Part shown: positions 6,703 through 12,713 of the stretch, in pieces | How positions within the stretch are numbered: the first letter of the stretch is position 1 | Layout of the letters: the number at the start of each line of letters is the position of its first letter | Source: Candidatus Kuenenia stuttgartensis | GTDB taxonomy: Bacteria; Planctomycetota; Planctomycetia; Pirellulales; UBA1268 | Direction: 5' to 3' | Assembly (NCBI GenBank): GCA_945891385.1 | Contig: CAMDDJ010000005.1 | Coordinates: forward strand, 5,819-69,818 | DNA length: 64,000 nucleotides | The notes under the pieces: generated by a model | Told to the model about the DNA's origin: nothing | Database searches by the model: none | The model's input: the letters and a program-made list of their open reading frames with translations, nothing else | Program-made: the position numbers and the translations under genes

Positions 6703-6846
6703 CCAGAGCGTCTTGAGGTACTCGAGCAGGGCCTGCTTCTGGTCGTCGTCGAGCACGTCGGCCAAGTCGTGGCCGGCGGCGCTCTTCCCGGGGCGACGCG
6801 TGTCGAAATACCGCCGCCGCTCCGAAGGCCGCAGCCTGCCCTCGGG
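6703..6846 (-). repeat. copy A of the cytochrome c gene 3' end (gene remnant, stop codon lost)
   Basis: Aligns codon for codon with 12561-12704. TGA is replaced by TGG, with F->L and A->S changes. Homology ends at the PEG codons, next to the IS91-like remnant. Confidence 0.8.
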
Positions 6847-6848
6847 AG

Positions 6849-7133
6849 GAGTTTCCGCTTGAGTGCCCGGAGTGTGGTGGCAACATCCGGCTGATCGCCT
6901 TCATCATGGAGCTGGGGCCGATCCGGAAGATTCTCACACACCTCGGCGAGCCGCTGGAGCCGCCGTCCGGGGAGCCGCCTGTTCGGAACCAGCAGACGGG
7001 GAACGCAGCTCACGAGCCGCTCATCACATCGAGCGTGACTGTGGAAGTGCCATTCGCCGGACTATCCCTTGGCGCTCCACCCGAAACAAGGCCCCCGACT
7101 GTCCAAAAATTCGGGTCCGCCTTAGTGGAGTGA
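6849..7133 (+). pseudogene. C-terminal remnant of an IS91-family (Y2/HUH rolling-circle) transposase
   Basis: Frame reads [40 protein letters not shown] with no upstream start. I recognise this CPxCGG...IAFI...IRKILxHLG tail from IS91-family transposases, from memory only. It is truncated exactly at the repeat junction. Confidence 0.4.
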
Positions 7134-7222
7134 CCATCGAACCGCTGCCAGACGAGTCATTTCCAAATGGCCCTTGGGGGCCGGGGCCCGAACTGCTCGC
7201 GTCGTTCGCCCAGTTTCCCGGC

Positions 7223-11300: not shown

Positions 11301-12323
11301 GTCGTTGAACGCGATCTTGCGAATCGCGGGAACCTTCTGGAGCGAGGCCGGGTCCGTACCCGTCACGGCTCTCGCCGGAACCGTCACCCAGGCATTCTTG
11401 GCCGGCACCCACTTCTGCAGGGTGCCCCGGAGCACCTGCGTCACAGTGAAGCCCTGCGATCCTTGACCGAGGAGATGCGCCGCCGTCAGTTCGATGGTCT
11501 GCCCGCCCGTAGCGTCGAGCATCACCGTCCGCGGACCGTTGACCGTGACCTGGAGGCTCGTCGGCTCGCTTTCAAGCCCGGCCAGGTTCTCGACCACCAC
11601 CGTGACATCGTGCACGCCGTTGGCAAGCTTCGGCGACTGGAGCAACCAGGCGCCGGTCTTGGCATCGCTCCTGACCCGACCCACCGGCACGTCGTCGATC
11701 GAGATGTTCACGAACCGATTGGGCTGCGCGACCCCGCGGAACCAGGGAGTGGCGTACGTCGTCTGGCCATCGCCCTTCATGCCGGTATCCGACAGAGCTC
11801 CCAGGACGAGCGTGGAAGGGGTCGGCGGCGTGGTCACGACCGTGAAGGTGAGCTCCTTGGAGAGTGCTCCAAAGCTCTTTCCAAACGTGCCCGAGGCGGC
11901 GACCGGACGGACGTTGATCGTGTGCTTGCCGGCAGCGAGGGCGGACTCGGCGGGCACCGTGTAGGTCCACTGACCATTAGTCACTGGCAGCGTAGCAACC
12001 CGCACTCCATCGATGCGGAGCCGAACCTGGCTCACGCCGCCCTGCACGCTGCCCGAAAACGCGGGGGTGCGATCGTACGTCAGGTTGTCGACCATCGAAG
12101 TCCCGGTGTCGCTCTCATCCGCGAGGTCGGCGATTCCCGCACGCATGCCGGCGTCGAACATCGTCCGCGACTCGAGCCGCTCGATCCGACACCTCGCGCG
12201 GGATGCCTTGCGGCGGCCGGAGCGCTGCGGCCCCGTGCCCGACAGCCAGTGACGCACTGCGATCAGGGCGGGAGAATCCAAGGTGATTCGCATCATGGCA
12301 GCAGGTCCTTCAAAGGGTTCCAA
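8307..12323 (-). CDS. large secreted mosaic surface protein (Ig-like repeats, carbohydrate-enzyme-type beta-sandwich-like module, tail-fibre-like module)
   Basis: 1338-aa uninterrupted ORF in a lower-GC block. It has an N-terminal RIERLESRTMF motif like the LEDR-type leader of large planctomycete secreted proteins. Two SDTG...D..T.D.TP.F.G Ig-like modules lie at aa ~68-262. See the findings. The start may be the Met pair at 12296. Confidence 0.8.
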   Translation of the reverse strand: MEPFEGPAAMMRITLDSPALIAVRHWLSGTGPQRSGRRKASRARCRIERLESRTMFDAGMRAGIADLADESDTGTSMVDNLTYDRTPAFSGSVQGGVSQVRLRIDGVRVATLPVTNGQWTYTVPAESALAAGKHTINVRPVAASGTFGKSFGALSKELTFTVVTTPPTPSTLVLGALSDTGMKGDGQTTYATPWFRGVAQPNRFVNISIDDVPVGRVRSDAKTGAWLLQSPKLANGVHDVTVVVENLAGLESEPTSLQVTVNGPRTVMLDATGGQTIELTAAHLLGQGSQGFTVTQVLRGTLQKWVPAKNAWVTVPARAVTGTDPASLQKVPAIRKIAFNDVVRWTPARGDVGMAAAFTLSPLDTAGGPIAPTPEVGAVPGRLVSPSIDYTAGVGSKITWGAPTDGCGCRSTRYTIELTREDGKTFVYNVPATVHGVSSVEGGVVSSARIWGATKTGAGEARSYDLATVADFANKLDFTIRSSASFMDPGAKARAQLANSLTQKQFTKSLPLGDSHAGLVYLQVDAVPDAIEAEQGLPAGTPMIISSDTSKLTPKQRADLKDNPIYASHLFPGTVNGEVQPDQLRAHFQAGEMLRFAGKVDASVRAGATIVVEKAQNLQDGSLGPWFQEARIPVAADGSFSHKYPVPYGMNSVRVRLEYQTQPATPSVGVTSSTATPISTPIDLSSSFNAFGITTPPWQAPNSQGFDRNGNYYNSDYTGSATSEPIPGTPIIYNGISFPIGPIPTALSQVGGGGNSATNNPLNFVQAQGQTIQVSVDADKSDYLYLAGAASNGDQLSQTITLNFTDGTTETWTQSFHDWASDGPPQSSNPPWPPVYTIAPGDNEKMPVRVATTAPVQNTNLYLTPEIFAGLQTIDGVTLAEGDRVLVKNQVYEQYNGIYVASAGAWSRAKDALTPEEQWNESMPVLSGTTNGGKYFWENTDPLTMAYDLTYVEIAPPVPTPRPFVGELNLKTEPERINQQGDLVTTPAHIFGYCRNLHGKQLASFTLPNNQNIGILSAVVSKAPVIALDQGFESLVLGTVHLTGVDLMALTIVNESNIGAGGGPLTFYFADQPEKGSTTTPPTYTTKQVTVPMGQQTTIAYIAPDSSSQMTFSVQKADGTCVGEDCSTYLADWADGSGSSMYWAAQITPLFNSQMRAGQHWTMTIQNAGLGYNGYLSSPSGQGLPAASGSTPAGAQFKLMTQNEINDQPPWAVALEEIAGEAIALVGVSILTLGTGDAAIAGAEVVDATVDSVSVAAADGSSFAESVLTDESIFEAIGDINDADLEERLDDLKAFNEKYGTDLPRIEVVDEVPFANNGGRPGEATKLFLQQFKALGWS

Positions 12324-12510
12324 CGCATCGAGTGCAGAGGCTTAGGGACGGGGCCCGCGGAGCGTGCTCGCCCAAGCAGATTGCCCGAAAGAGTAGCATT
12401 GCGAGGTATTGGCCGCAACATTTTGGTCAAAGCGTGAGAAGGTTGGGGCAAACAAACCCGTTCCGTGCCCGATGACCGGCATGACCGGCACAGCCGCTAC
12501 GGCCGTTAAG

Positions 12511-12713
12511 CCGCGTCGCCAGGGCCGCGGAAGTGCCAGAGGCCGAGCGGACCTTTGAACTCAGAGCGTCTTGAGGTACTCGAGCAGGGCTTGCTTCTGG
12601 TCGTCGTCGAGCACGTCGGCAAAGTCGTGGCCGGCGGCGCTCTTCCCGGGGCGACGGGTGTCGAAATACCGCCGCCGCTCCGCAGGCCGCAGCCTGCCCT
12701 CGGGCAGGTCGGC
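12511..12713 (-). repeat. copy C: the functional 3' end of the cytochrome c gene plus 50 nt downstream
   Basis: Direct repeat of 8083-8285 and, for the coding part, of 6703-6846. It is contiguous with the intact gene at 12561-13979. Confidence 0.85.

Follow-up and report, generated by a model that had tools for sequence, protein, structure and literature searches.

How the end of one gene came to be present three times within 6 kb is the question raised by a 64,000-nucleotide (nt) stretch of contig CAMDDJ010000005.1 from a Pirellulales assembly (the window). Here, the 3′ end of a gene for a RoxA-like di-haem cytochrome c (12561..13943, minus strand; 460 amino acids (aa) as called; Pfam RoxA-like_Cyt-c 4.8e-24, Cytochrome_CBB3 and Cytochrom_C) recurs twice in the interval that separates this gene from thiC (5205..6560, minus strand; 451 aa; Pfam ThiC_Rad_SAM 6.8e-192). 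Read along the minus strand, the order is mgtE (14065-15411, plus strand), the cytochrome c gene, repeat C, a gene for a Big_13 protein, repeat B, a GNAT/RHH gene pair on the opposite strand that forms a putative toxin–antitoxin (TA) operon, a transposase remnant, repeat A and thiC. The unit between repeats A and B is referred to below as cassette 1, and that between repeats B and C as cassette 2. The locus is best regarded as a variable array that recombination has built at a hot spot for insertions, and not as a new mobile element. For its origin, we favor, with about an even chance of being right, an explanation in which the cytochrome gene and thiC were separated by a composite insertion at this hot spot, made by serial displacement of 3′ ends together with general recombination and without a dedicated recombinase.

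An insertion between two neighboring genes

The cytochrome locus was compared across 80 species-level genomes, all of them freshwater or soil Planctomycetota metagenome-assembled genomes. Orthologues of the cytochrome gene are found in the 80 species, and the gene is also called in contigs L081 and L091 (L and P numbers are our handles for contigs and loci). In these species, mgtE, the cytochrome gene and thiC are syntenic, with thiC as the ancestral downstream neighbor: its start lies no more than 700 nt past the cytochrome stop in 61 of the 63 related Pirellulales loci that have thiC in view (median of 105 nt). The 6-kb block is therefore an insertion, and the empty site that an earlier note on this sequence had proposed to look for is present in these relatives. 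The GC content of the cassettes is ~0.60-0.65, as compared to ~0.69 in the flanks, and a duplicated cytochrome gene end is found in none of the 80 related species. Since an uninterrupted alignment covers copy A, the intergenic sequence and thiC in L010, L016, L031, L054, L055 and L072, copy A and the intergenic sequence upstream of thiC (d0; 6561..6702, minus strand, collinear with relatives) represent the native gene end.

Other material is also found at this site. In some species, it is occupied by an unrelated DUF6288 protein, beta-helix/GDSL protein or histidine kinase. In the second-closest species (L002, 4320-8446), the site contains a remnant of a group II intron reverse transcriptase (RT)/maturase, two ParE toxins and one HicA toxin, and resembles a small graveyard of selfish elements. 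In L071, a 38-nt direct repeat (1477-1514 and 1954-1991) spans the cytochrome stop and flanks an insert of ~440 nt before thiC, a miniature parallel, in a different species, to the theme of the window. Repeated elements of 40-140 nt, two to three per locus, are present in the spacer after the cytochrome stop in L003, L022, L034 and L041. Many contigs of the closest species end 150-400 nt past this stop, as expected of a repeat-rich or variable spot.

The repeat copies and their rearrangement among strains

A repeat search of the window recovered a single three-copy direct repeat family, which comprises 8083-8288 (the reference), 12511-12716 (95% identity) and 6653-6858 (78% over 206 nt, the lower value reflecting homology that is limited to 144 coding nt). 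Within the 64 kb, a 25-nt core is found at exactly three places, with 0 expected in shuffles. The 144 nt are the last of the cytochrome gene and align at 12561-12704 (copy C), 8133-8276 (copy B) and 6703-6846 (copy A), as the earlier note had placed them; its observation that B and C also have in common the 50 nt after the stop, here called d, and a few nt further 5′ holds as well, the latter amounting to ~13 nt. Repeat C (12511..12716, minus strand) consists of these ~13 nt, the working 3′ end of the gene and d (12511-12560). Repeat B (8083..8288, minus strand) consists of an orphan 3′ end with d (8083-8132), and its 5′ border is situated 18 nt past the Big_13 stop. Repeat A (6703..6846, minus strand) is an orphan 3′ end whose 5′ border is fused to the transposase remnant.

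The differences among the copies argue for an origin from working alleles. Copies B and C differ in five codons, four of them changed synonymously and the fifth giving Q38R, which reproduces the list made earlier; the synonymous share is thus 4/5, relative to the 25% expected by chance. Copy A differs from C by A8S, F28L, two synonymous changes and a TGA to TGG change that removes the stop (TGAAAG to TGGAG). The native sequence at the copy A stop is TGAAAGTCGCGG, as seen in L123, which has TGA followed by d0. Copy A had been described as decaying, and F28L and the lost stop agree with that description, but A8S is no sign of decay, given that it is also present in the functional gene of L001, the closest species. 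Q38R of copy B is likewise found in the working gene of L001. Because the differences between B and C are synonymous or shared with L001, as is A8S, the copies sample working alleles and did not arise by duplication in place. The proposal that these are successive 3′ ends of the gene is upheld: the sites at which B departs from C are all synonymous or allelic, and A, its stop lost, keeps the native downstream sequence.

These data also bear on tandem duplication of the gene end in place, followed by divergence and replacement of the interior. Such duplications are the commonest spontaneous rearrangement, and the B junction, at which the end of the Big_13 gene meets the repeat, looks like a join left by a duplication. 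However, the two units have only the repeat in common, the copy differences are allelic or synonymous and not random, the sequence downstream of copy A is different and native, and the modules are found separately and in another order elsewhere. This already disfavored origin is considered very improbable. A diversity-generating retroelement (DGR) was also rejected: no RT is present in the block, and the repeat differences (G/A, G/T, C/G, T/C and AA/GG) are not adenine-specific.

The same modules are present in other metagenomes at 99.5-100% identity, in different order and in other contexts, and the locus is therefore polymorphic, a point that the earlier note had proposed to check. More than 20 contigs, drawn from several studies, carry the segment made up of copy A, the transposase stub, a spacer and the RHH and GNAT genes (6704-8080) at 99.5-99.8% identity. 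After the copy A stop, this segment continues into d0 and thiC (window, L106), into d, the Big_13 upstream region and the Big_13 gene, which reverses the module order (L082, L083, L109), or into d and the Big_13 upstream region, after which six codons of Big_13 run into an IS91 transposase (L084-88, L111). Past the GNAT stop, it is followed by d and a B-type repeat (window, L083, L090, L109, L110), by an IS3-family element directly after the stop (L084-88, L108) or by a second, inverted IS91-type copy (L082, L107). The repeats themselves are mosaic: an A-type copy holds its markers to position 114 and is then followed by d0 in some contigs and by d in others, the repeat of L085 is a hybrid, and the single-nucleotide polymorphisms (SNPs) involved are mostly allelic or synonymous. 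The thiC gene is also mosaic. Contig L106 is 100% identical to the window over 5694-7677, and its identity collapses to 61-79% in the 3′ third of thiC (L106 1-390 versus window 5302-5693), which places a crossover inside the gene. In L082, thiC is 86.8% identical, the TA block 99.6% and the Big_13 variant 72-82%, and no repeat lies between the Big_13 variant and thiC.

An assembly artefact is excluded as the source of these arrangements because the window contig is also found in ENA (L081, 100%) and its junctions recur in independent assemblies: that of B is also seen in L093 and P0121, and over 20 independent contigs contain that of A. A chimera was rejected on the further grounds that A-type SNPs and d markers fall within one k-mer and that the junctions occur in ENA, JGI, Logan and NCBI assemblies. 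When JGI metagenome contigs were scanned for the exact pattern of a 26-nt repeat core, only four distant soil homologues (34-40% aa identity) came back, and a protein search with the last 59 aa gave 10 short matches, which are informative only for P0121 and P0127.

The cargo of the two cassettes is compact. In cassette 1, a spacer that is constant in all contigs (7072..7293, plus strand) leads from the IS91-type end to the TA operon. Its first gene encodes a 90-aa RHH/RelB-like putative antitoxin (7294..7566, plus strand; NCBIfam antitoxin_RelB_like 4.3e-6, below the curated cutoff) and is found in 58 index blocks. The second encodes a 172-aa GNAT acetyltransferase and putative type II toxin (7556..8074, plus strand; Pfam Acetyltransf_1/7/10, 5.6e-13), for which an identical protein is found in 17 contigs; it overlaps the antitoxin gene by 11 nt, and its stop is 8 nt from d. 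Based on this gene layout, the pair is a putative type II GNAT/RHH toxin–antitoxin. Cassette 2 carries a gene for a 1329-aa secreted or surface protein with Ig-like domains (8307..12296, minus strand; Pfam Big_13 2.7e-24, NCBIfam Ca_tandemer), of which L093 has an exact copy. The region upstream of this gene (12297..12510, minus strand) is ~93% conserved together with d in other contigs, even before a different gene.

Several features of the surroundings were recorded in addition. No tRNA or tmRNA target is found in the window. Rfam gave no match in the 64 kb, and a relaxed threshold around the repeats gave nothing credible and no thiamine pyrophosphate (TPP) riboswitch. The spacer upstream of thiC (6561-6702) and its orthologues are likewise without a TPP riboswitch or other Rfam family; a short ATCTGCTAGGATT-like motif ~60 nt before the thiC start is common to several species. 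A gene for a phytase-like protein with a PEP-CTERM-type tail adjoins thiC (4109-5173, minus strand). Finally, an ATP-dependent DNA ligase with N, M and C domains is encoded at 26953-29202 (plus strand) and could bear on end joining in this organism.

Repeat borders and the IS91-family remnant

If one recombination site had produced the repeats, their borders would be expected to coincide. The earlier note had homology end at essentially the same codon in A and B. These two borders do fall within 10 nt of one another, but they lie at −48 and −52 codons, respectively, and that of a third orphan lies at −38. The third orphan cytochrome 3′ end, from L123 (1-502; ENA ERZ1283832), begins 10 codons further in (SAG|ERRYFDT), has a different upstream partner and keeps TGA and the native downstream sequence, with no thiC following; it comes from the same sample as L110, a contig with a longer transposase remnant. 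On the 3′ side, homology through d reaches +50 in the TA module, +44 in L001, where an rve-type fragment follows, and 0 where d0 is present, and d continues on in the Big_13 module. Since the 5′ borders differ and each has a different partner, they do not represent one site. The orphan borders are three different illegitimate joins, and the unrecognized insertion mechanism that had been suggested is not needed to explain them.

Copy A homology begins ~10 nt later than that of B, inside a perfect 16-bp palindrome, CCTGCCCGAGGGCAGG (CCTGCCC-GA-GGGCAGG), which is found at 12693-12708 in repeat C and at 8265-8280 in repeat B and is restricted to the window/L001 lineage. The possibility that this is a serine-recombinase core was rejected: the GA-centered palindrome is intact in B and hence is not the crossover point of B. 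When folded, d, the palindrome and the IS end did no better than shuffled sequences, and no terminator was found in d.

The earlier statement that neither cassette encodes an integrase agrees with searches of Pfam and NCBIfam, which show no recombinase in either. Matches to Phage_integrase, Resolvase and Recombinase are absent from the cassettes, the sampled open reading frames (ORFs) of the window, the cassette-bearing variant contigs and the insertions of relatives at the site. An integron was rejected as well: the cytochrome gene and mgtE occupy the upstream side, with no intI or attI, and the repeat and d fold no better than shuffles.

These observations can be set against an origin in which integrase-type islands accreted in tandem at the cytochrome 3′ end and decayed to remnants flanked by attachment (att) sites, similar to cis-mobilizable elements (CIMEs) and possibly moved by an integrase in trans. 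Direct att-like repeats flank each element and copy C completes the target gene, which gives the topology attL-island-attI-island-attR with each element restoring the gene end. In addition, d acts as a conserved arm across different cargos, the borders cluster at the palindrome, and a three-step scenario of this type has been described for tandems formed by integrative and conjugative elements (ICEs), integrative and mobilizable elements (IMEs) and CIMEs (PMC5704250). However, the copies do not have the same core borders, either 5′ (−52, −48 and −38) or 3′ (+50, +44 and 0), and no integrase is present in the tested window ORFs, in any cassette-bearing contig or at the site in other species. 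Further, the partner of copy A is the interior of a transposase gene and not an att arm, the Big_13 module is without room for a deleted integrase at either end, and the palindrome is confined to one lineage. Accretion of integrase-type islands is thus viewed as possible but rather unlikely.

The transposase sequence beside copy A belongs to a 5′-truncated, internally deleted IS91-family element (6847..7071, plus strand) that retains the last ~45 codons of a Y2/HUH transposase and an oriIS-type right end, GTGCCATTCGCCGGACTATCC, at 7047-7067, followed by CTTG (7068-7071). This motif is the only one of its type in the 64 kb. The right end was defined by comparison with the copies in L099, L116 and L082; in other copies, the flanks diverge right after it. 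The stub had been taken for the only trace of mobility, and it is indeed an IS91-like transposase remnant at copy A, but its right end is complete. An intact Y2 HUH transposase is not found in the window, in which only the ~45 last codons and a weak ISCR match (E=0.05) remain, whereas the full-length relative in L116 has Zn_Tnp_IS91 and Y2_Tnp ORFs and a likely left end that bears a CCTCGAGG-type hairpin. The stub translation matches 616 protein clusters, nearly all of them 62-167-aa ORFs of freshwater Planctomycetota and a few with Y2_Tnp, and a longer stub query matches 1578. In L098 and L110, the same element, with an identical C-terminal tail, has 70-80 more transposase codons and no cytochrome sequence. 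The join between the stub and copy A, which falls inside a transposase codon, is therefore a secondary illegitimate truncation and not an att site.

In IS91-family elements, oriIS marks the end that lies downstream of tnpA and adjoins the target tetranucleotide (CTTG/GTTC), CTCG is the terIS cleavage tetranucleotide, and one-ended transposition takes along DNA on the terIS side, opposite oriIS (PMC13181058). From this end organization, it follows that the TA genes are outside the element on the oriIS side and that copy A is on the terIS side. The palindrome holds CTCG, and the copy A join is 2 nt off. Rolling-circle one-ended transposition that copied the flank in a simple way, as had been considered in the earlier note, does not fit this geometry, which puts the genes on the side that such transposition does not mobilize.

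A more elaborate route would resemble the capture of genes by ISCR1: an IS91-family HUH transposase acting in trans would make a circle of the IS end, the TA operon and the cytochrome end, and this circle would integrate by homologous recombination. This would leave a conserved segment duplicated on either side, as is the case in ISCR1-linked class 1 integrons with 3′-CS duplications, and the layout of cassette 1 matches, with a segment copy, a truncated IS91-type transposase with its oriIS-type end and CTTG, unique genes and a second copy (PMC3575428, PMC6218425). The IS91 family looks active and is present in great numbers in these bacteria, strain variation begins exactly at the oriIS-type end, the palindrome contains the terIS tetranucleotide CTCG (PMC13181058), and the full-length L116 copy has a likely left end with the hairpin noted above. 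Nevertheless, one-ended transposition moves terIS-side DNA and the TA genes lie past oriIS, the joins are 2 and 9 nt off CTCG, which is itself common in 68% GC DNA, cassette 2 is without IS91 sequence, and the 64 kb contains only one ori-like motif. A second stub next to a gene 3′ fragment, from an RND transporter (L099/L112), also failed as a general case, the fragment being only 47% identical in aa sequence to the neighboring full-length gene and not a duplicate of it. Such a capture is judged to be unlikely. Its extension, in which the 16-bp palindrome with central CTCG would be a pseudo-terIS or entry site for IS91-family HUH transposases in trans and circles tagged with the gene end would repeatedly home by homology, is more doubtful still; if true, it would represent chromosomal, ISCR-like ‘flank-copying’ cassette accretion outside the antibiotic-resistance world.

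Some further properties of this family were observed in the metagenomes. The element is extremely abundant in those of freshwater Planctomycetota, almost always as 5′-truncated C-terminal stubs, and none of the best 120 matches is full length. Among the contigs L099/L100, L112/L113 and L115/L116, the identity between strains (99.99% over 10.4 kb) stops exactly at the oriIS-type end. Comparison of these sequences suggests that this end may still be a site of rearrangement or of mobilization in trans. Finally, the fusion seen in L084-L088 and L111 links the first six Big_13 codons (MMRITL), at a CTTG, with the part of an IS91 transposase that contains the HUH motif (HRFGSALNHH).

Assembly of the array and comparison with known systems

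In the serial displacement of 3′ ends that we favor, an incoming segment would carry the 3′ end of a related cytochrome c allele, the 50 nt downstream of it (d) and cargo. This segment would join upstream of the resident 3′ end, homologously on the gene side and illegitimately on the distal side, and the resident end would therefore be left as an orphan. Copy A, with its native thiC-proximal sequence, would be the oldest. Copy B would have come with the TA operon already beside an IS91-family element, and copy C, now the working end, would have come with the Big_13 gene. Later deletions may have pared the modules to selected genes, which would account for the cut transposase, for joins that are 8-18 nt from gene ends and for genes that fill the space between the repeats. 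RecA-type recombination could then use the repeats, 150-200 bp in length, and the core genes at the flanks as substrates, and would excise and re-integrate modules, reorder them, make hybrid repeats and carry the block between lineages.

Several points weigh against this proposal. The two orphan borders in the window are no more than 10 nt apart at a perfect 16-bp palindrome, which is unexpected for random illegitimate joins; such clustering would be consistent with a recombinase core or with a site cut by a nuclease. Otherwise unrelated modules have the 50-nt d in common, which resembles a conserved att arm. Both features would be compatible with decayed, CIME-like integrase islands and also with an IS91-type nuclease that acts on a CTCG-containing hairpin. 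For this genome, the recombinase search was confined to the 64-kb window. The informative contigs are mostly 1-6 kb in length, so that in the larger variants (the IS3 and second-IS91 contexts and L110) an integrase located a few kb off would escape it. Lastly, we infer the joining step with its one-sided homology, the role of RecA and likewise the order of arrival.

The locus shows the assembly of a small variable array, its reordering and its passage between diverged lineages in uncultivated freshwater Pirellulales. The cargo of the array consists of an adhesin-like surface protein and an addiction module, and no recombinase of its own is present; recombination apparently has no other substrates than the core genes at the flanks and the ends of a conserved gene that are duplicated here. 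These findings bear on how ‘integrase-less’ islets in metagenome-assembled genomes are read and on contig breaks at such loci. Should the link to the IS91 family be causal, the unresolved ISCR1 capture problem would extend to a natural, non-clinical system with many informative variants. Most worth following are the unexplained clustering of borders at the palindrome and the huge population of 5′-truncated IS91-type ends in these bacteria.

Among known processes, homology-facilitated illegitimate recombination and Campbell-type integration are similar to the proposed joining step in that one side is homologous, here through the cytochrome gene, and the other joins non-homologously, with short repeats that permit excision and re-integration. 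In contrast, the classical outcome of homology-facilitated illegitimate recombination is an insertion with deletion of recipient sequence and not a duplication of the anchor end. Chromosomal integron arrays also consist of compact modules of one to two genes parted by a repeat of ~150-200 nt and, as in the window, have one TA cassette reversed. The window differs from them in having no intI, attI or attC-like imperfect hairpin, and its repeat is coding sequence of the adjacent gene.

Tandems of ICEs, IMEs and CIMEs, such as those related to ICESt1/ICESt3 at fda, come close in structure: direct repeats derived from the 3′ end of a protein gene flank two adjacent elements, the incoming element supplies a new gene end, remnants without integration genes are found, and a TA module is among the cargo (PMC5704250). 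Relative to these tandems, the window has no detected integrase, its repeats are long (144-206 nt) with unequal borders, one of which falls in a transposase remnant, and its modules of one to two genes leave no space for lost recombination modules. In the complex class 1 integrons linked to ISCR1, as in cassette 1, the terIS side of an IS91-type element is fused to a truncated conserved segment, unique genes follow on the oriIS side, and a second conserved segment lies beyond them, a duplication explained by homologous recombination (PMC3575428, PMC6218425). Here, however, only ~45 transposase codons are left, the role of conserved segment falls to the end of a housekeeping-type chromosomal gene of Planctomycetota, and cassette 2 is without IS91 sequence. 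Overall, the locus lacks the defining features of integrase islands, integrons and DGRs and, of those that mark IS91, has the oriIS-type end only; it works like tandem island accretion and, for cassette 1, like an ISCR1 complex structure.

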